Shown one piece after another: positions 1 to 63,303 of a stretch of DNA of 64,000 bases. Location: positions 9,364,001 through 9,428,000 of the forward strand of contig NC_087251.1 in NCBI RefSeq assembly GCF_037042905.1, given 5' to 3'. Source of the DNA: Lytechinus pictus (Eukaryota). Under the pieces are notes generated by a model that searched no databases, had not been told where the DNA came from, and saw only the letters and a program-made list of their open reading frames with translations. Numbering within the stretch: position 1 is the stretch's first letter; each line of letters begins with the position of its first letter. The position numbers were made by a program, and so were the translations under genes.

Positions 1-333
1 AAAAGGGGACCCCAAAAGTAAGATCGTCTCTTCCAAAATACATGTTTTATTTCGATTTTGAATTAAAGACCAAAAATAGTAGAGGGGCATTTCATAATGT
101 GCCCCCGACTATTTTGGGTGAGGGGGACATGTCCCCCTGGGATTTGCGCCCATGTGGGTGGGGGTGATGCGCCTCTCTTTCGGAATCATTATGGAAGAGT
201 GTAAATACGAGTTCGCTGTGATTTCGATCTCATACCTATAAAAAAAAAATTGAACAGCTACGCCTTGAACACAGGCAAAAATGCCTAACGATTTCTCCGC
301 GGCATTAACAACTCTCGTAAGGGGCGCTCCATT

Positions 334-435
334 TATAAATAAAGTTGCATATGTAGCTGTCTACCGCGACAGGAACAGTCGCAGAATTGAAGCCAGAAGC
401 GTGGGAAATTGCCAGAAAATTCAAGAAAAGAACCG
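334..435 (+). promoter_or_regulatory. Candidate TATA box and non-coding first exon, possibly of the downstream sulfotransferase gene
   Basis: TATAAATA at 334-341; consensus donor CCG|GTGAGT at 435/436; a matching acceptor TTCAG lies before 6490. Linkage to the sulfotransferase is inferred. Confidence 0.3.
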
Positions 436-620
436 GTGAGTACCGATTTAACAGTACTAATTTATTAAGTAACATTTATTGAATCATAAGAAGATTTATT
501 TTTTAGTAAAACAAAGCTTAGTTCTAAGCTAGGGCGGCCCAAATGCGCGTGAGTGGAGTCCCAGTTTATTAGCACGGGTAAGTATTGGGGTGTCGCCTCG
601 AGTGCTTGACTATTAAAGCT

Positions 621-3256
621 TAGACAGCTGGCAGCCGTCTGTTTCGAGGAGTTTTTTAACATTTTTTTTTTTTTAATTTCTCCTCGTACACAGACGGCTC
701 GCTAGCGTGCAGCCACCATTAGGGGACTTGCAATGCAAAATCCCCCCGTCGGGGCTCTTCAATTTTTGTCTTTAATGAATAAAAATTTTGAAAATTAACG
801 CGACCAAAATGCAAATTAATATTCCCTCTTGGCATTAATTGCCAAAAAACGGAGAAAAATCAAGGTAAAAGGAACAAAAACAGTGACTTACCTCGGCTGT
901 CGCGCAAATTCACTTCCCCGTTTTATCCGATCTTAAGTACATAAACATATGGCCATTGAGTCCCCTGTACAGATCGCGCTAGAACTTCGGTCTCTGTATT
1001 TGGTGAGTGAAGCCAACGGAGTTCAGCTGAACAACCAACATAACAGAGACCGAAGCTTTTGGTCTAGACTAAGCTTAGACCAAAAGCTTCGGTCTCTGTT
1101 ATGTTGGTTGTTCAGCTGAACTCCGTTGGCTTCGCTCACCAAATACAGAGACCGAAGTTCTAGCGCGATCTGTACAGGGGACTCAATGGCAATATGTTTA
1201 TTAGACAGGAATAACCGTCGTTTCTGGGGATTTATTCAACAATTTCTGACATTTTACTGTAATCCCCATTTACCGACGGTAGGGTGTACGTGTGGGCTCG
1301 CATGTGTTCTCATTCCCTCCCTTTTGTAAATTCACAGTCCAAAGTTTGATGCAATTTTACACATCGAATTTACAATCTAAGGATGTATAAACAACAAACT
1401 TTTAATTGATGATATTCCAACATTTAAATACTTTAAACGATATAGATGAAAAAGGCATGAAAAATATACTTTACCGATGTTTAATTGGGTTGAACACGAT
1501 AAAAATGGTCAAAATGGCAGCCAAACTATAAAATATTTACAAACGAACGTCAACAATCACGAATGTGATATCGATATTGCTTTCGATATTATACGATCTG
1601 CTCCATATGCGAACGAAACCGAAGATAAACGATACTAGTTATACTAGTACGAGTACTAGTTATAATCGCGATATATCGATTCGAGACATTAAGTTAATAA
1701 CGACAATGACGTCATTCAAGATGGCAACTTGCAAGAAAAACCGTCAGGTCAGGTGAAAATGTCTTAGATGACAGATTTCTCAATCATCCAGAGGATTTTT
1801 TTCAATAACTCCGGCCCAAGGTATGCAATTACTTAAGTTATATATATTTCCCTGATAATGGAAACCATGAAACTTTCAATTTTGCTTAAAAAACAGTTTT
1901 AAATCGCGATCTATAAAACGCTAGTTCACTATACGTTGGCTGTAGGTACGGGGCCCCATCCCCTTCAGTCTATGTATGGTGAGTGGAGCCAACGTAGTTC
2001 AGCGGAACAACCAAAATACAGAGACTGAAGCTTTTGGTCTATATGTTTATGTATGGCAGTGTATCCTATTGCCGGACACCTTTATTTCAGTGCTTTAAAA
2101 ATGACAACTAGAGGAAATACAATCAAGAAAAATTCACACTTGCTATTCCAAATATTCTGAAAATTATGAATATGATAAAATTATTTTATATTTACCAACC
2201 ATTTTCTTTGCATCGCACTTGCCGCATACCCCTCCACGAAAAACAATTATTTTCGTGCGCGACAAATTACATCATGATTCCGGACGCGCGCCGGACGGGT
2301 AAAGATATCCTTGATTATAATGATGTAAGAACAAATTTTTGTGATTTTTTTTTCTTCTTATATCATATCATGAGTAAATTCTAAGTATTATTTGCTTTTT
2401 TATATCGAATCTGAGCAGATGTTGGTAATAAATTCGTGTTTGATAACTTATTTTATTTTGTCTTGTTAGCTGCATGTTCCATGGCACTTTCCAATGATAA
2501 TATGCTCGCGTTCGTATATCGTGACGCTCATCAAGTTCTATCGATGCGCTGCCGATCGACGGCTCTACTCACGGTAAACCTCGCGCACGGGTACCTTGAG
2601 AACTAGCCGTCGACGATCACCCACAATACACCACACCTCATCATTTGATCGATCAAGGAGTGGACGAGATTGAAATTCGGCAAATCAGGCCCATATTTCC
2701 GTTAGAAAATATATCAATTGTTAATACAAAATATGTTATATGATATTTTAAGCATTTTCTGTCATTTTTAGAGATAATTAGGTAAAAGTTGGATTTTTCG
2801 CCTTGTTTTTGCAATCTTGTTCTATGTATTGCTCTGTGAAATTGAATTGCGGAAGTCTTACGGTACGAATTTGTTTTAGAACGCAGTAATATGCGCGTCC
2901 GGAATCATAATAGTGTCCGGTAATACAATACGTGACTATACTTAAGATCGGATAAAACGGGGAAGTGAATTTGCGCGACAGCCGAGGTAAGTCACTGTTT
3001 TTGTTCCTTTTAACTTGATTTTTCTCCGTTTTTTGGCAATTAATGACAAGAGGGAATATCAATTTGCATTTTGGTCGCTTTAATTTTCAAAATTTTTATT
3101 CATTAAAGACAAAAATTGAAGAGCCCCGACGGGGGGATTTTGCATTGCAAGTCCCCTAATGGTGGCTGCACGCTAGCGAGCCGTCTGTGTACGAGGAGAA
3201 ATTAAAAAAAAAAAAAGTTAAAAAACTCCTCGAAACAGACGGCTGCCAGCTGTCTA
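621..3256. mobile_element. Non-autonomous DNA transposon with ~320 bp TIRs and TAG..CTA termini (Academ-like), carrying nested insertions
   Basis: 621-939 (TAGACAGCTGGCAGCCGTCTG...) is a near-perfect reverse complement of 2939-3256 (...CAGACGGCTGCCAGCTGTCTA). No clear TSD and no transposase ORF. Confidence 0.85.
940..2051. mobile_element. Nested composite insertion flanked by TA, containing a 261 bp palindrome and a TAGACCAAAAGC-ended element (1076-2041)
   Basis: Ends CATAAACATA / TATGTTTATG with TA at 938-939 and 2052-2053. Similarity to the host element's right arm resumes after 2053. 1076 TAGACCAAAAGCTTCGGTCTCTGT pairs with ACAGAGACTGAAGCTTTTGGTCTA ending at 2041. Confidence 0.7.
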
Positions 3257-3786
3257 GACGTCTAAGCTAAGCCTACCATATATTGTTGTACTCATTTGTA
3301 GAACCCACACAAACATGAATATGTAGGACCATTATACAGTCAAGGTGAAGCCGCGGGCAGTGAGGGTTTTCCAGCATTTTGCATCAAAATAACAGTAAAA
3401 ATTACCATGGTAATTAGATGAACCACATTTATAAATACAAAAAGTCTCCCAATCGCCAACTTACCCTGATCTTCTGACTGATTGCTTTCCCCATCTCCAT
3501 GATTGATGTCTTTAAAATCAGTATTGTTTTTTATAAAATAGATTATCGTCATCCGATCATCGCTACAATAATTCAGGTACAGAAACAGACAAATTGAAAA
3601 CGAAAAAAATAATTAAAAAAATTGAGAGATTTTTTGACAAGGCAATAATAATGAAGGGGGCAGAGAGAGAGAGAACAAAGAAAGAACAGAAAAATAATCA
3701 CAATAAATAAACAAAAATAAGAAAAAATTAAAATGAAAAGAAGAAGAAGAATTTATTTGTCAATAATTCTTCCCCTCCTTTTCGAA

Positions 3787-6615: not shown

Positions 6616-8296
6616 ATGTCTAGGCCCACTATACGGTCGTTATGGTTCGTCTTGGGAATGATGTTATTAGCGACAGTTATCATCTCCTATTTTTACTCAG
6701 GTATGTTCCCCATCTTCCTTCTTTTTATATTTTCATTTCATCATAATACTTGTTTCAATTTGGCGCTGCATGCCTCCAACTTGTAAGCCCCTAGATCGGA
6801 GGAAGTCGGGTACTTTCACCCTCCACCACGAGTACCAATAATATGTTGAAGTCCCACCCCACTATGTTGTCTGCGGAGATTTGGAAAATAATATATCATC
6901 TTTGTATACGATCACTGCCATTTTCACTTTCATGTTTTCTTTTTAAGGATATATACCAAGCGGACGCTTCGCATTATTAAGGACATTGAATCGTGAAACA
7001 AAGCTTAAATTGAACAGACCAGGTATTGGAAGAGAAGAAGCAAGACAGGTAAAATTTTCTTTTTAAAAATGGATTTATAATGCGAAGATAAATGTACAAG
7101 ATGTTGTATATCTCCCATTTAAACTATTATTGAAATCAAAGAATAACCCCCCCCCGGTTTCAATTTGATGACAAATATTTTCATCCGCTCAATGCATATA
7201 AATTCCTGTGATATTTTATGGTGGCAAATTATAATGCAACTTCCACATTTTCGTTGAGAAACACCTCTTGTATTAAGGCCTCATGTATCATGATGATTGC
7301 ATTGAATAAAGTTGCTTTGGAACTAAATGATTGTTTGAGGGGGCATATGCCTGTTATTATAATCACTTGAAGAACAATAAGCATAATTGATAAGCTAAGC
7401 CTAGAATACTTTTTGTCCTCAGGTAAGCTGCATGTTTCTTTTCTTATATATTCTCTTTGATCTGATAGAATAGGAGGAAGCAAGCTCTAACACGCGGATG
7501 TAAAGCCATGAGGATGCCTCCATCATTTCGTTTGTACAACCATCTCAATCCCAAACAAGTGTCCACCCTAGATCATTTTATCGTGATGGAAGAGCTAAAA
7601 TTGTTTTATTGTTGCATACCACACGCTGGCTGCAACACATTGAAGACAATTTGGGGATCGCATGATGGCCGCATGCACCAGGGGCATGATGATGGAGTTG
7701 AGAATCGACGAACACCTCGCCTGTTGAGTCAATATAAAACAGAGAAAGTCAAGTCGATATTACAGGAATATTCATCTTTTATCTTCACGAGGAATCCGTA
7801 TTATAGGCTACTCTCTGCGTTTTTAACAATATTTAAACAAAAAGGGCAATTGTCTGAGGTTGACGAATCAGTCAGAGAGATAGGACGAATATTCACTTCG
7901 AAAATTAAAAAAGAGAAACGTCATTCAGCGAACGATGATCATTCCAACTATTCGGTTACTTTTCCAGATTTTGTAGGTCATGTTTCGAGTTCGACAAACA
8001 GGTTGTTAGGGAAAGGTGAGGACAGATGGAGAGAGATATACCGTCTATGTCATCTCTGTGGAGTTGACTATGAATTCCTTGGAAAGTATGAGACATTTCA
8101 GGAAGATACCAAAATAATCACGAGAAGATATGGTTTGGATATAAACGTCACTGAAGTTCATCTGGATGATTCTCCTCTTGATGTCGATGTCGACGTAATG
8201 AAGAGATACCTCCAAGAGCTCACCCCTTCCCAAATTACTCAGTTCTCAAAACGATATGTCGCAGATACATCCCTCTTTGGTTACACGATTCCGTAA
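6616..8296 (+). CDS. Carbohydrate sulfotransferase-like protein (Sulfotransfer_2 family, CHST8-14/CHST11-like), join(6616..6700,6948..7048,7469..8296), 337 aa
   Basis: GT-AG introns keep the frame (85+101+828 nt). N-terminal signal anchor MSRPTIRSLWFVLGMMLLATVIISYFY; 5'-PSB-like FYCCIPHAGCN; 3'-PB FTRNPYYRLLSAF; family motif LCHLCGVDYEFLGKYETF; C-terminal YVADTSLFGY. Probable 5'UTR exon at 6490-6540. Confidence 0.88.
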
Positions 8297-24297: not shown

Positions 24298-27200
24298 ATG
24301 GCTGGGATCGACAACGATGACAATCAAAGCGTGAGTGACAAACAATGAAAAGTTACTAAGTATATAAGTAATAACTTTTGCAATGTATCACCGAAGGTTG
24401 TACGCGATTGTATTTATTTTTCGTTCAGTCCCATCAATGTACATTTACGTCAGTAGACTAAGTTGTTCGCGGTGGTGCGTGGAGTCACTGGAGAGCAAAG
24501 AGCAGTGCACAGGAAAGTACAAGGCACAGCACCCGCAAAACTTTAATGGAATTTTTTGTTATTTAGACACTAGATCATACATTGTTAAAATAATGACATC
24601 ACTTTTTTCTAAATTAAAACTGAATTCCCGAACGATATGAAGCCACATTTCGCTCTTCGTCTTTCATTTGTCTTTCTATTACTATTAGTTACTAGTTAAA
24701 AAATTCTATAAAAATGATGATATAAATTATAAGGAGGCTCGATAGCTCAGTCAGTAGAGCGGGGGTTTCGGATTCCGTTGACCCGGGTTCGATTCCTAAA
24801 TGGTGCGCTAGTGCCCTTTGGTAACACCCATGGGTTCATATCATCTCGCGTGCGAAGGAATATCAGTCATATTCACGCGACACATCCAAAATATACTGGG
24901 CTTTTGCCCACATAAAATATCACGCATAATTCTCCTTGAAACCCTAACCCTAACTTCTCCTTGAAGTTTCTTTTTAAAAATATGTATATTTTCTTGATCT
25001 TTAGTGAAGATTTCACGGAGATAAAAATTGGTTAGTTGTTGTTGTTGTTGTTGAATATGATGGCGCTCTTCAATCTCTCCAGATTATACGCGCCAGTCAC
25101 TTTCGTAAGTAGGACGTCGTCGGCAAAGGAGATCCATACGACGTTAGACCATTGGTGACGATTATATGACATATTAATATAGATTAGTCACCCATCCACC
25201 TATTATATTAGTAGGTCCTACAAGATTAAACATCTTCGAGGAATAATACTTCAATACAAATAGAGAAATTAAATATCGCGCGTGCTAAATGATTGTTCGT
25301 GAAAAAGGGCACACCAGCTAACCAATTGGCTACTAGTTATATATTTATAGAATTTCTTAAAATATTCGTCAAATAACAATTCAAATGTGATATCACATAC
25401 AATTACACGTCCTTCTTATTATTTTGTCTTGTCTTTTCTTAGTTTTTTATTAATACAATTTTTAAATCCTTCTTGTGTTTGACTAACTGTAAAAACGGTT
25501 AGTGGCATATATAAAACATAGTAGTTCCCGTGTATAATCGGGATTAATTAACAATTGTTTAAGATTCGGGTCATTCATCTTAAGTTTATTAAACATAATG
25601 CGTCTCTCCTTTACATATTTTGAACAAAATAAAACATAATGTTCAATAGTCTCAAATTTTTTGCACACATCACAGAGGCCGGAAGAGTGCTGTTTAATTT
25701 GAAACATAAAATAGTTTAATTTGCACTTACCTACTGTGATTTGATGAAGGAGGCATTCCTCTTTCCGAGAAAAACCTTTTCTATATGCCTGCTTAAAAAC
25801 ATTATAATGAATAGCATATAAAAATCTACCATTTCTAGACGCATTCCAATCTGCTTGCCAGACACTTTTATAAAATGTCATGCGTGAGCATGTGAGTTCA
25901 TTTATAGTGTTTGGTAAAACGATGTCTAAAAAATTTTTCGCGGCTCCTTTCTTGGCAGCTTTATCGACGATCTCATTGCCGTTAACATCACAATGTGAGG
26001 GAATCCATTCAAAATTAATACAGATATCTTTCATACTGAGTTTATGAATTTTAAATAAAATTTCATTAACAATGGTGCATTTTATGAAATATGAATCAAT
26101 CACATTCAGCGCTGACAAAGAGTCGCAAAAAATTACAACTGAACATGGTTTATCAAAGGATTCTAACCACTCAAGTGCCATTAAAATGGCCAGGAGTTCC
26201 GCTCTCATGATACTTACATTGGATAACCTGAAATACTTTTTTATTTTATATTGAGGAACATAAAATGCTGCCCCCGTTCTAAAATTTTCCTGTTTGGATC
26301 CATCAGTATATATATGTAAATAACCATTCCACACAATTCCAATTCTTTCTAGAACGATAGCTTTCATCTCGGCCGTTAGCATATCCTTTTTTCTAATTAT
26401 ACGATGAGCACAAAACGACACAGGGGAGCGGGACAAACGCCATTCCGGGATTCTTGTTAATAAGTTGTCTTGCTTCTCTACAAGTACCTCATCACTACAG
26501 GCTCGAAGTTTGAAAGGTCTTTCCCCTTCCTTCCATTCGTGTCTGTTCGTATGTTCAATGAAAATTTCTCTACTTGGATGGCATAAAGTGCTAAACAACA
26601 AATAATATCTAAATTTATCATTAAACAGTTTTCTCCGAAGATACAACGGTAATTCACCAGTCAAAACTTGTAAAGACTCTAATGATACATTGTATATCGT
26701 TCCTGTAATGATTTTCAAAGCTCTATATTGTATAGAGTCAAGCTTTTTCTTATGAGATGTACAGGCAGAATCATACATTTCCCTTCCATAGTCTAAAACA
26801 GATAAAATAAGACCTTTGTATATCATCATCAAAATTTCATACCTATTCCCCCAGGACGTACCCGAAACGCAACGTAATAAATTTAATCTTTTCTTACATT
26901 TATCAATAATCGCATTAATGTGGCTAGACCAAGTTAGTTTTGAGTCTAACCACATACCAAGAAATTTGAACTGCTCACAATGAGGCAAAACATGCCCATT
27001 TATTTTCAAAGTAATATCTTTCTTTTGTTTATTGGTAAAAACTAAAACTACAGACTTTGTGTGAGAAATATTTAATTTCCATCTCCAGCACCAGATTTCG
27101 ATTTCATGGAGGGCTTCTTGCAGCTTTTGGCGAACCAGATCTAAGTTTGAGCTAGTAAACCAAATCGCGATATCATCTGCATAACATGATAGCTTTACTC

Positions 27201-30200
27201 CACTTTCTTTAATCTTTAAGTCATTTAACATCAATGTAAAAATGACAGGACTTAATGAGCTCCCTTGCGGGATTCCGTGCTCTAATACATACTTGTCTGA
27301 CATACTATTGTTAACTTTCACGTTACAATATCTATTTCTTAAGAAAGCTCTAATAAAGAAAAATAATTTTCCACTAATATCTAACATTGACAATTTTTTC
27401 AAGAGACCTCCTTTCCATAACGAATCATACGCCTTTTCCAGGTCTAAAAAAACTGCCACGGTATATTTTTTCTCCTTCAATGCTAAATGAACATCTGTTT
27501 CAATCCTGACTAAATGATCTTTGACGCTACGATATTTGCGGAATCCTGATTGAAGTGGGTTTAACTTCTTCTTATTATCTAAAAACCAATTCAGACGGTT
27601 TTTAATCATTTTCTCCATGACTTTAAACAGGGTTGATAATAAAGAAATTGGTCTATAGGACGACACTAAACTAGGATCCTTTCCAGGTTTCAAAATAGGT
27701 ATTTGAACAACTTCATACCACTGACAAGGGAAATGTGAAGTTTTCCATATGTCGTTGTACAGATCTAATATGACATCAAGCGCTATTTGGGGTAAGTTTT
27801 TTAACATAATCGCATGAATATCATCCTTACCTGGCGCTGAGTTTTTCAAATCTTGTAAAACATTCTTCATTTCATTCATGTTAAAATCATCATTAATGCA
27901 GTCATCATTCGACATTTCTTTACATAAATTATCTTCATTTTCACCATCATCATGATCATTATTATAAAAAGATCTGTCAATAGACTTGAAAAAACTTAGC
28001 GTGGATATCAATTTTCTCCTAAAGAGGGCGCGCGATTTATATTCATATCAAAGACACAACAAGGGAAAGACTAGGCACCTACACTATTTTACACGCAAAT
28101 CGACGCAAGGCATTACGCGAAGTCCGTGAAGTGTCCAATCTTTTCATTGTATAGACTTTGGTATACCGTATTATTGACGTTCGTTAAAGCTTGTACTGCT
28201 GGTTTCATTCCAGGCATGTGTATTTTTTTTTTATTAGTCATCGTTTTAAATTAATTGCAAAAAAGTGTCATCATCGCCAATAGTAATCTTGAATTATGTT
28301 TTTGAGGTATTTCATTTATTGGTGCCCATAATTAGTAAATTAATCATAAGAATTGCGCATTCAAAGAATTTAGACACAGTTATAAAATTACCGAGGAGCT
28401 GAATCAAGGTTGTGAAATTTATTAGCGCCACCAACGGGCTTCCTTGTATTTCCGTAGAAGAGACAAAGGAAGTCACTTGCTAGGCCGAGGTAAGCGAAAT
28501 TTGCTCTTTTTATAATGAAGTTATTTCCAAATCATATATGTATAATTTTTTAATGTATTGCTACTTACCGGAAAGAGCCCCGGTGCGTAGCGAGAAGGAG
28601 TTTCGGCAAATATTACTTCAGCAATGAAGCGATGTTTGCCGACTACTTCGAAATCCAGGGTCAAACACGGTCCCTTGTACGAGGTTAGTATACCATATAC
28701 TAACCTCGTATTAGTGTGAGTGCTTTGGTAAGGCATTTATCCTCATTACCAGACACTCACGTATTGCGAGGTTAGTATTAGTATACTAACCTCGCACCGC
28801 ACCATGAACCGCGTTTGGCAGTGGATTTCTAACTAGTGGGTCGCGCGTGCTGGGATCCCATTTCTGGTGTCCACAACACACGACTTCTATGGCTTGATTT
28901 TTCTCTGCGCGGCAGCATGTAATGAACCCTTGGGTGATTACCAGGTCCCTCAGAGAGGATGTTAATCCGTTGGTCCCCTGGTTGCTTGCTCACAGGCATT
29001 TGTGCTTTCTTAGCAGTCAGGTAAAAACCTTGGTATAAAATACTCTTGTCTCGATGCCGAAGAAGGTTGAATCTCACATCCGGACTTTTTGCGTATGATC
29101 TGATATATGTAGAGAGCTGCGAGAGGGCACGTGATATTATTCATACGCTTGCTTGTTTACATTGGAAGCTTCTGTTGCATTCTAGGCACTCAGTATTTTT
29201 TTCCTCTGACTGGGTCTTGTTTTTTCGCTGTCAAAAATTGGCGTACTTCACCTATAAGTTTTTACATTAGATGCGACCCGTTGATTTTTTTGTACAATTT
29301 CCTATTATGCGCTGACGAATTGAATCGAGACTGTAAGATCAGAAAAATTCACATTTCGATTGTTGTTTGATTGAGTTCCACCGCAGTATGAAAGGATCTT
29401 CCGAGGTTCTTGGCCGAGATGTGTAGGTAAGCGTTAAAAAAATCATTTTTAAAAACAATTTTAATATATTTTTATCATAAAGTTATTGAATATCTTAAAA
29501 GTAATGCAGTTTTTGTAAGTATAGAAAGTTTTGGGGCGTTTTATTCCCCCACATTCATGTGATGAAGGAAACATCAAAATCCTTTGTCAAACGACATGCA
29601 TTGTGCGAGGTTAGTATAGCATACATGTACTAACCTCGCATGTGTGTGAGTGGAGCATAATCTTGTTCATTGAATGAGTGGTGGAGAAAGGTGTTTTGCA
29701 CACTAGGCACACGAGCGAGAGACTACCGTATATGTATTCTATTCTCGGGGGGGGGGGGGGGGGGGGGGGGTTACTCACATGAATATCGCATACGGGGATG
29801 TGCTGCTCCAGTGGGTCGTTTTTTCAAAAAAGTCCTTAGACATGGCCATGGGTCTTGCTGTTGCAAGAAATCCATAGCCGTGGGTCCTATTTTTCAACTG
29901 AATAATCCTTAGACATGAGTCCGTTTCTGAAAAACAAAACAGATGCTTATAAGAATCCCCAGGAAAAGCCCCGGAAATGTCTTTGTTAGTGGCCAGTTGG
30001 CCACTGAATATAGCACAAATACAATTTGTAAACTTGCGACTCACTGCTGTAGATCTATATTGCAATATATCTCTTAGTCTTACGATGCCTTCAAAATTTG
30101 CCAGATTATTAAATGGCCTAGGGTTGATTTGGTTTTGTTAGATTTTATGTGCAGATTTTCCTTTGGTGCAATTGTTGCCTGAGCAAATGTCATGGAACCA

Positions 30201-48639: not shown

Positions 48640-49520
48640 AAGGCAACAGGTCTATGAAGAATTCCATATCATGCATGAAACTGTTTCAAGTACCTTGGAT
48701 AAGATTAAGTCAGAAGAGGAATAGGTCTGAGACACTGTCACCCAGGCAAGTGGATTAGCTAGAAGTATATCAGATATGTTTCTGTGTTCATTGCAGCTAT
48801 CCAGATATGTCACTTCATATTTGGGTTACCAAATGTCTCAGTTGTCTATTTTAAAGATGCAACATAGACATCCTAGAAGCATACACGGATGTGAAGCTAG
48901 TCCAGGATGAGCTTTCCGAGATAAGGACAAATAGTAAGACAAAGTTTGACAGGAATGTGTACCCAGACATGAAGCACATGAGTCGATTGGCTGGGGGAGA
49001 AATGAGGATACCACATAGGTGCTTCTCTCAGACAAGGAGGAATCTCTCCACTAATAATACTGCCGACAGCTATAGAATTGAGATTTTCAGTCAGTGTTTG
49101 GATGGTTTCAATTCGAACATGGATACACATTTCATTGACTTAGCCAATCAAGCAGTAGGTAACAATGAGGTACATAACACAGAATGTATACAACATTGCT
49201 TGAATTCTAAGGCCCTGACCTACCATCATCAGGTACATATCGGCAATGACTGAGACAACACCTTAGAAGAGAAATGCAAGAATGCCATCAGGTTTGCTGG
49301 AAACTCTTCAGCATTGCAACATTCTGCACTTCCAAAAAGTTCACAAATCCTATATGTGTTCATGCTGATGCCTGTGACCAGATGTGGAGTGGAAAGGGCA
49401 CATTGTCAAAGATTTATTAAATTTCTCTTCAGAAGTATGCCTACTATTGGTAGTAAATGTATGTTAATTGCCTTAATGCTGTTCTTTGTTCATAGAGACA
49501 TTTAAATTGATTATTAAGTG
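48640..49520 (+). pseudogene. Decayed hAT transposase C-terminal half (THAP12/ZMYM1-related type)
   Basis: DILEAY..VKLV...L..IR, RIP.R...QT.R.N...YRIEIF...LD, and dimerisation-domain-like MPVTRCGVER..LIALMLFFVHRDI, with frameshifts. Confidence 0.7.
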
Positions 49521-61943: not shown

Positions 61944-62357
61944 TAGTTATACTAGTTATACTAGTACTAGTACTAGTTATAATCGCGATATATCGATTCA
62001 AGACATTAAGTTAATACGATAATGACGTCATTCAAGATGGCAACTTGCAAGAAAAACCGTCAGGTCAGGTGAAAATGTCTTAGATGACAGATTTCTCAAT
62101 CATCCAGAGGATTTTTTTCAATAACTCCGGCCCAAGGTATGCAATTACTTAAGTTATTTATATTTCCCTGATAATGGAAACCATGAAACTTTCAATTTTG
62201 CTTTAAAAAAAGTTTTAAATCGCGATCTATAAAACGCTAGTTCACTATACGTTGGCTGTAGGTACGGGGCCCCATCCCCTTCAGTCTATGTATGGTGAGT
62301 GGAGCCAACGTAGTTCAGCGGAACAACCAAAATACAGAGACTGAAGCTTTTGGTCTA
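61944..62357 (+). mobile_element. Near-identical copy of the right ~410 bp (1633-2041) of the TAGACC..GGTCTA element
   Basis: Direct match from TACTAGTTATAATCGCGATATATCG through GAAGCTTTTGGTCTA with few differences. Confidence 0.92.
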
Positions 62358-63215
62358 GTTTGTGCCCAACTCCGCATTAGAATTCATGAATGGAAAATTA
62401 TGTCATCAATCGCACATGCACAATGTACTTCTTTATCTCGGAGACGTATAGTCTTTGCTGGTCGACATTACCAATATTTTCAGTATTGCCATAGAATGTT
62501 ATCAAATTGTAATAATTTACATCCAATAATAATTCATATAAATTTAGAGCTCAATTTGAGACATTCGTATTTATTTCAATCGAGTCAGTGCTCTGCAATT
62601 ATTCTGTGTCTAAAAATGGATTATCAAAAATATCATTATCAGGATTAATTCTCGAACATCGTCATAACTCATATTCCACAAACCTTTCTCAACTTTTTAC
62701 TTTTTCGATGCATCAAAATTTGAAGGCGGGAATTAATATCAAGTCAATTATTTTGCTCCGTCATGACCGCGCTGAAATGCACTGAGGGCCGGGGTAAGCT
62801 TTGCAAAAGTAGCTGGATGCAGAGCAATAAAGATCGTTTGTATTTTCCATGATCACAAAACAACAAAAAAAAGTACCCAAGCAGAATTCTTCCCAAAATA
62901 TCTAAAACAATGATATTTGCAGATGAAATATACGCCGTTAATAAAATAATATGGAAGACAGAATCACGCTGAGTCGATCTAAACAATTCTCGGTTAATTC
63001 ACAGTCACAGTCCAGACTCGCACACAGACAATGTACAGCCCCTCACTCTCCCAAAACGACAGGTGTGCTTGACGCCCAACAAGTGCTATACTAGCAGAGA
63101 CCAACTTGCCTGAGATATAGTTGGATCCAAAATGAGCTCCAAATTGATGGGAATAACTATCATACATAATTTTTTCAGGATGGTCATTTGAATTGGTATT
63201 CTATGCTGATATAAG

Positions 63216-63303
63216 GGCGGCAGTAATGCGCCCATGGGTGTGAATTGAGCTGCGATTTTCACGCATGCACAGTTTGCGCACCCATGGGTGCATTACTGCC
63301 GCC
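63216..63303. repeat. Small inverted repeat/MITE
   Basis: GGCGGCAGTAATGCGCCCATGGGTG ... CACCCATGGGTGCATTACTGCCGCC. Confidence 0.75.

Follow-up and report, generated by a model that had tools for sequence, protein, structure and literature searches.

Three related non-coding elements with unlike ends and a palindrome at one end in a 64-kb stretch of Lytechinus pictus DNA

A stretch of 64,000 nt from the forward strand of Lytechinus pictus (assembly GCF_037042905.1, contig NC_087251.1, positions 9,364,001 to 9,428,000), referred to below as the window, contains three related non-coding elements, copies 1 to 3, which lack terminal inverted repeats (TIRs) and carry two unlike ends, designated A and B. 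These elements are real and exceed what chance would produce. They are, with high confidence, non-autonomous transposons of the DDE cut-and-paste type. The complete proposal, that they represent three related non-autonomous families moved in trans by a Kyakuja-like DDE transposase of the KDZ group, is advanced tentatively, the guess at the owner included.

The analysis follows up a reading of the letters alone (the sequence-only reading), whose two complete elements and third end B, finishing at 29652, were recovered at the same coordinates. Four of 24 listed public sequencing runs (X1, X5, X9 and X23, bearing three organism labels) were aligned to the window at a likeness of 85. All figures given for them hold among the matches listed, and a depth is a sum over contigs, which should not be taken for a copy number. 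In the following list, TSD stands for target-site duplication, SINE for short interspersed element and LINE for long interspersed element.

24816-24824 (+): left TSD of copy 1 (CTTTGGTAA); in three of the four runs, a joint from 24815 to 28723 shares 9 letters
24825-28722 (+): copy 1, from end A to end B; once the nested LINE is subtracted, about 934 bp remain
24825-24839 (+): end A of copy 1, a 15-bp motif with a 10-bp palindrome inside it, at positions 2-11
28678-28710 (no strand): end-B palindrome of copy 1; stem of 15 bp and loop of 3 nt; core arms of 11 bp separated by 7 nt
28716-28722 (-): end B terminus of copy 1 (CACTCAC)
28723-28731 (+): right TSD of copy 1
28745-28753 (+): left TSD of copy 2 (8 of 9 letters match)
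28754-28936 (-): copy 2, complete, 183 bp, in the orientation opposite to copy 1
28765-28796 (no strand): end-B palindrome of copy 2; 14-bp stem, 4-nt loop
28937-29042 (+): 3' portion of the SINE, preceded by the right TSD of copy 2 at 28937-28945; loose contig ends at 29026-29042
29044-29652 (+): copy 3, end B and an interior of uncertain extent; patchy depth in the public runs
29604-29640 (no strand): end-B palindrome of copy 3; 13-bp stem, 11-nt loop

Structure of the elements and of their ends

End A is nearly the same in copies 1 and 2 (14 of 15 bases identical). Ends A and B agree at 5 of the first 6 bases, at only 5 to 7 of the first 11 and at 6 to 11 of the first 30; being alike only at their tips, they form no TIR, as had been asserted from the sequence alone. 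The left end of copy 3 was not found, no end A with a matching TSD being present upstream within the window, and beyond the last 80 bp the interior likeness between copies 1 and 3 is weak (the same level is reached by 6 and by 12 of 300 shuffles). Copy 2 holds two tandem duplications at the level of this copy, one of 6 bp at the centre of the palindrome and one of 5 bp behind it. All three end Bs of the window fall within 1 kb. Reading of the element bodies in six frames yielded no open reading frame (ORF), and no Pfam transposase match was obtained in the bodies or among the 10 distinct ORFs scanned, in agreement with the earlier statement that no transposase is present.

A distant motif resembles end A. 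An 88-bp inverted repeat at 63215-63303 has 25-bp arms that start inside with an end-A-like motif (13 to 14 of 15 bases) and show further likeness to end A of copy 2. No TSD or end B was found for either arm, and the structure is either a pair of back-to-back relatives or a separate small element.

The palindromes of end B lie 12, 11 and 12 nt from the terminus in copies 1, 2 and 3, and their stem and loop lengths are those of the sequence-only reading. The window contains five perfect stems 13 bp long or longer whose loop does not exceed 11 nt, and the end-B stems account for three of these; none occurs in any of eight dinucleotide shuffles. The covariation reported for these stems is upheld to the extent of one A-T to G-C double change, that is one of 18 predicted pairs, at a site where the left arm of copy 2 was misaligned by MAFFT. 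The stems are purely Watson-Crick, with no wobble pairs, and fold equally well on both strands (-13.5/-13.6, -14.7/-15.2 and -13.2/-13.3 kcal/mol in copies 1, 2 and 3). RNA reads across the element bodies are few and come from both strands, without a peak of starts or ends within the elements. The lack of wobble pairs, the equal folding of both strands and the low, unbiased RNA together make a DNA signal likelier than an RNA hairpin, and an RNA hairpin or small RNA was rejected for want of strand bias and wobble pairs.

The spacing of the palindrome arms is not fixed, the spacer of the copy-1 family being 7 nt under two organism labels and 5 nt shorter under the third. The shorter form, with the loss located at 28691-28696, accounts in X9 for 25,651 + 13,890 = 39,541 of a summed depth of 41,872 over 8 contigs; this loss at 28691 is seen in neither X5 nor X1 and in 0 of 38 reads of X23. 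In copy 2, 5 letters are skipped at 28793 in 61 of 96 RNA reads. The 11 gap letters of an X5 contig (record 15) fit a loss of both copy-2 duplications, which would leave a perfect palindrome.

Two observations concern the same sequences. A single X9 contig joins 28692 to 24821, running from the palindrome to just before end A, as in a head-to-tail pair or a circle junction. Two telomere-type CCCTAA units are present in copy 1 at 24933-24949, and the palindrome arms and end A resemble the core of the telomere repeat.

Insertion into a host SINE

A single SINE, about 210 bp long, holds both copy 1 and copy 2, inserted at points 22 bp apart, and copy 1 is itself interrupted by a LINE.

24733-24824 (+): 5' part of the tRNA-derived SINE, up to and including the left TSD of copy 1; A and B boxes by eye; contig ends at 24733 and 24741
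28732-28744 (+): inner 13-bp fragment of the SINE, enclosed by the two insertions; the same 13 letters stand between the joints in 2672 RNA reads
25036-27995 (-): nested, 5'-truncated LINE that has a (CAA)n tail and is flanked by TTAG at 25032-25035 and 27996-27999

The two flanks of copy 1 match at 9 of 9 letters (CTTTGGTAA), and those of copy 2 at 8 of 9 (ATTACCAGA on the left, ATTACCAGG on the right), the mismatched base adjoining end B. Of the 9-bp TSDs originally attributed to both complete copies, only that of copy 1 is a full match, and the TSD is 8 or 9 bp long. Both copies are compatible, at nearly even odds, with a 9-bp TSD altered by one mutation and with an 8-bp TSD beside which end B carries, outside its CAC, one base that varies; across the three copies the base at that position is G, A and C.

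Insertion itself could be verified on other SINE copies. The empty site of copy 1, joint 24815 to 28723 with 9 shared letters, is present in two X9 contigs, one X1 contig and 249 X23 reads, and that of copy 2, joint 28744 to 28937 with 8 shared letters, in two X9 contigs and 297 X23 reads; a G stands after those 8 letters in the SINE copies. These are paralogous SINE copies and not an allele of this locus. As they show the empty sites, insertion with duplication of the target is proven. The limits of the copy-2 family were also delimited independently: two X5 contigs depart from the sequence exactly at 28936, its end-A boundary, and record 15, an 858-nt contig, carries 28758-28936 within other flanks, so that ends A and B are paired there independently. 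Copy 2 differs from a relative in the public runs at 10 of 168 letters.

The element families are clearly repeated under the three organism labels and amplified differently between them. In X9 the summed depth reaches 38,000-158,000 in the bins of copy 1 outside the LINE and 236-3,683 in the LINE, for 12-37 in single long contigs; of the two families, that of copy 2 has the greater depth in X5 and X1.

The SINE, whose outer parts span 24733-29042, is abundant and displays strong strand-specific transcription in X23, and 473 RNA molecules end within it at 24740. No tRNA was called in it by ARAGORN or Rfam; an Rfam search gave one match, at an E value of 0.07, which falls short of the cut-off of that database. 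Both TSDs lie on the two arms of an inverted repeat of the SINE, TGGTAA..TTACCA, in mirror orientation and one base out of register, and a hexamer of the TGGTAA type is present in 8 of 408 SINE 9-mers. This clustering, which was spotted post hoc in a window chosen as striking, hints at a target preference or at attraction to a resident copy.

The LINE makes up 2.96 kb of copy 1. Its open frame of 854 aa (25483-28047) matches reverse transcriptase (E 1e-39) and RNase H (E 8e-14), the latter presumably placing it in the I group. Its depth profile is separate from that of the element and declines in the direction of its 5' end. The LINE is young; at 27995 one X1 contig departs from the window and goes on into the 5' part that is missing here, with 18 differences in 2513 letters.

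Proposed mechanism and classification

Fixed tips together with a near-constant duplication point to DDE cut-and-paste transposition in trans. The transposase, none being encoded in the window, would be supplied by another element, would cut at the CAC tips and would open the target with a stagger of 8-9 nt. Its two ends would be told apart by internal sites taking the place of a TIR. The candidate for such a site is a GGTT core, located at positions 9-12 in end A and 17-21 in end B and present twice, inverted, in the palindrome; these cores are predicted from the sequence to be binding sites. End A would thus offer one site, 9 bp inside, and end B, 11-12 bp inward, two inverted sites that make up the palindrome. 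Subfamilies whose spacers differ in length by 5 nt, or half a helical turn, have both amplified; recognition by one rigid dimer is therefore improbable, and the enzyme would more probably bind two independent half-sites or an extruded hairpin. Outside the stems, GGT(T/A)AG occurs 5 times in the element bodies for 0.7-0.8 expected (P 0.001-0.002, for a motif picked after looking). Facing GGTAAG/CTTACC motifs occur in copy 1 at 28489-28570, and also at 29426 in copy 3; they may represent either binding sites or the remnants of splice donors.

No superfamily has been assigned to the elements. The claim that the combination of features fits no known group proves overstated, since TIR-less Kyakuja with a 7-bp TSD (PMC12730594) and TIR-less Curupira with a 9-bp TSD (PMC6446971) have been published. 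Moreover, a TSD that is possibly of 8 bp reopens the question of KDZ, hAT and P elements. That neither Transib nor Helitrons fit cleanly is supported on the features examined, for Transib by the TSD length and for Helitrons by the absence of asymmetric inverted repeats and of a 5' T.

The KDZ group is the favored owner, at the tentative level given above. Kyakuja elements have CA..TG termini, no TIRs and a 7-bp TSD (PMC12730594). Twenty fungal Kyakuja starts, taken from the first 400 letters in 2 of the 20 parts of Table S1 of that paper and hence covering no 3' ends, begin with CAC in 11 cases, GAG in 5, GAC in 3 and CAG in 1, and 10 of the 20 have CCCAT at positions 4-8. The present elements share the absence of TIRs, the CA..TG termini, the CAC start (several of the Kyakuja starts are CACCCC) and a similar TSD size, and CCCAT is found in end A of copy 1 at positions 3-7, one base shallower. 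They differ in their TSD (8 or 9 bp, against 7), in host, the Kyakuja starts being fungal, and in the lack of a transposase here. Zisupton and Dileera generate 8-bp TSDs (PMC12730594), which fits one of the two readings of the TSD. However, Zisupton is described with TIRs (PMC12730594), for only 5 to 7 matches in the first 11 bases here, and the fungal starts of this pair are GGGGC and GACCT, instead of CAC. KDZ elements of Cryptococcus have TIRs and TSDs of 4-8 bp, a range that also holds for KDZ2/3 (10.1101/2025.05.19.654958).

Several points weigh against this assignment and against the proposed mechanism. No transposase is tied to these ends, and there are two complete copies only, with a TSD of 8 or 9 bp. 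In a relative of copy 2, represented by one X5 contig, the palindrome is broken, with a loose end at 28798. The covariation amounts to one pair and one event in three sequences, and template switching can homogenize palindromes without selection. Under the Repbase rule, by which members of a family share 11 terminal bases with at most one mismatch (PMC4455052), end A fails against all 20 Kyakuja starts, as judged by eye on starts that are all fungal. A 9-bp TSD would match none of the KDZ values in the sources available (4-8 bp). Finally, CAC starts are typical of EnSpm and Transib as well.

A possible but less probable alternative is that the elements are non-autonomous derivatives of a TIR-less lineage of Mutator-like elements (MULEs), the TSD being of 9 bp and the mismatch in copy 2 a later mutation. 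A length of 9 bp lets both ends begin symmetrically at CAC, and the 10/168 divergence of copy 2 from its relative makes one mutation in the TSD plausible; the usually G-rich termini of MULEs count against it. The 8-11 bp TSDs of MULEs fit the copies, and TIR-less animal members exist, namely Curupira, which makes 9-bp TSDs, and MuDR-6_HM; non-TIR Mutators with 9-bp TSDs occur in flatworms (PMC6446971). The likeness to Curupira, MuDR-6_HM and VANDAL extends to the lack of TIRs and the animal hosts, with the 9-bp TSD for Curupira. Most MULEs nevertheless carry long TIRs, which are absent here, CAC tips and a one-ended palindrome are not part of the descriptions in the available portion of PMC6446971, and neither a MULE ORF nor a MULE transposase was found in the elements.

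An ordinary TIR superfamily, whose TIR would have shrunk to 6 bp with differing subterminal sites, is unlikely. The ends of hAT and P elements are functionally asymmetric, which speaks for this alternative. The usual TSD of hAT is 8 bp (PMC12730594), P likewise being considered here for an 8-bp TSD, and AcademH, compared by TSD length alone, makes 9-10 bp (PMC10045372). On the other side, only 5 to 7 of the first 11 bases match between ends, and a TSD of 8 bp would require that one further, variable base stand outside CAC at end B but not at end A.

It is more doubtful still that the elements belong to an undescribed animal DDE lineage, for instance a CAC-ended one of the CMC/Transib type with a cut widened to 8-9 bp, in which TIR-less ends would be paired in a manner reminiscent of the RAG 12/23 rule, the hairpin of end B would be extruded and recognized, and new copies would be drawn beside older ones at core-like palindromic targets. 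The CAC..GTG tips, the tolerance of the spacer, the position of the GGTT core, which in end B is 8-9 bp further inside than in end A, and the absence of all six end motifs from the paper text searched are in its favor. Yet the phase argument hangs on a 4-base core, and absence from print is weak evidence as Repbase and Dfam lay outside the search. Transib and EnSpm (the CMCT clade) share the CAC..GTG termini, but have TIRs and TSDs of 2-5 bp (PMC12730594), for no TIR and 8-9 bp here.

Rolling-circle movement as a Helitron2/Helentron, or movement of copy 1 by the reverse transcriptase inside it, is largely refuted: subterminal hairpins with compensatory changes do mark Helitron2, and some derived families have 7-19 bp TSDs, but Helitron2 requires asymmetric inverted repeats, a 5' T and T-rich targets, none of which is seen here, and its TSDs accompany truncated copies, whereas the present ends are fixed (PMC3627910), while the open reverse transcriptase frame of copy 1 belongs to a nested LINE, set apart by a flanking repeat, a tail and a depth profile of its own, and copy 2 lacks a reverse transcriptase.

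Dada elements also lack TIRs and insert into a Pol III-type repeat, but they enter a small RNA gene at a single, constant position, with a 6-7 bp TSD and short subterminal inverted repeats common to both ends and to the target (PMC3706591). Here two different sites of a SINE body were used, with an 8-9 bp TSD and a palindrome at one end. A repeat of the Dada type shared with the target was looked for and not found, and this candidate was rejected.

Relatives carrying these ends were sought beyond the window, and none was found in the metagenome, viral and prokaryote collections scanned. A metagenome scan for the palindrome gave 7 loci; the tip of end B, end A and any similarity to the window are absent from all of them. 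The strict end-B pattern had no match in the viral or prokaryote scans; looser patterns gave 19 viral and 28 prokaryote matches, with a short hairpin in 1 of the 47. Occurrences of end A in viral contigs (86 stretches) were dismissed as chance: in 93 loci compared, the only matches were AT-rich ones of 18 and 40 nt, and none was accompanied by end B. In the literature text searched, supplements, Repbase and Dfam lying outside it, neither a one-ended palindrome with these ends nor any of the six end motifs is described, and the available portions of PMC5718144, PMC12477816, 10.1101/2024.04.05.588311, PMC9587614 and PMC10379824 contain nothing on such ends. The family may already be catalogued.

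Other features of the window and significance

Three further features of the window were recorded. A 132-aa frame at 48855-49253 looks, by eye, like the C-terminal end of a hAT-type transposase that has decayed; it has no Pfam match, lies 20 kb off and is unlinked to the elements. A perfect 125-bp palindrome at 1009-1133 is made of two inverted repeat ends, and the repeat concerned is also present as 410-bp copies at 1632-2041 and 61949-62357, which are 98% alike. A 275-aa sulfotransferase exon occupies 7469-8296 (Pfam Sulfotransfer_2, E 4e-28).

Ends without TIRs combined with TSDs of 7-9 bp are already known, and the present group is a variant of these, not a demonstrated new kind. Nearly all models of eukaryotic cut-and-paste transposition presume two inverted ends, in place of which CAC tips and a one-ended, spacer-tolerant palindrome are found here. 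The end signals are compact, the smallest element being 183 bp long, and provide a handle for finding the transposase and for testing how ends are paired in TIR-less elements. Until the enzyme is found, the group stands as a well-defined but unclassified repeat. Should its owner prove to be a KDZ transposase, the elements would show what the ends of a TIR-less animal family of KDZ are; should none of the known superfamilies fit, they would represent a new lineage.

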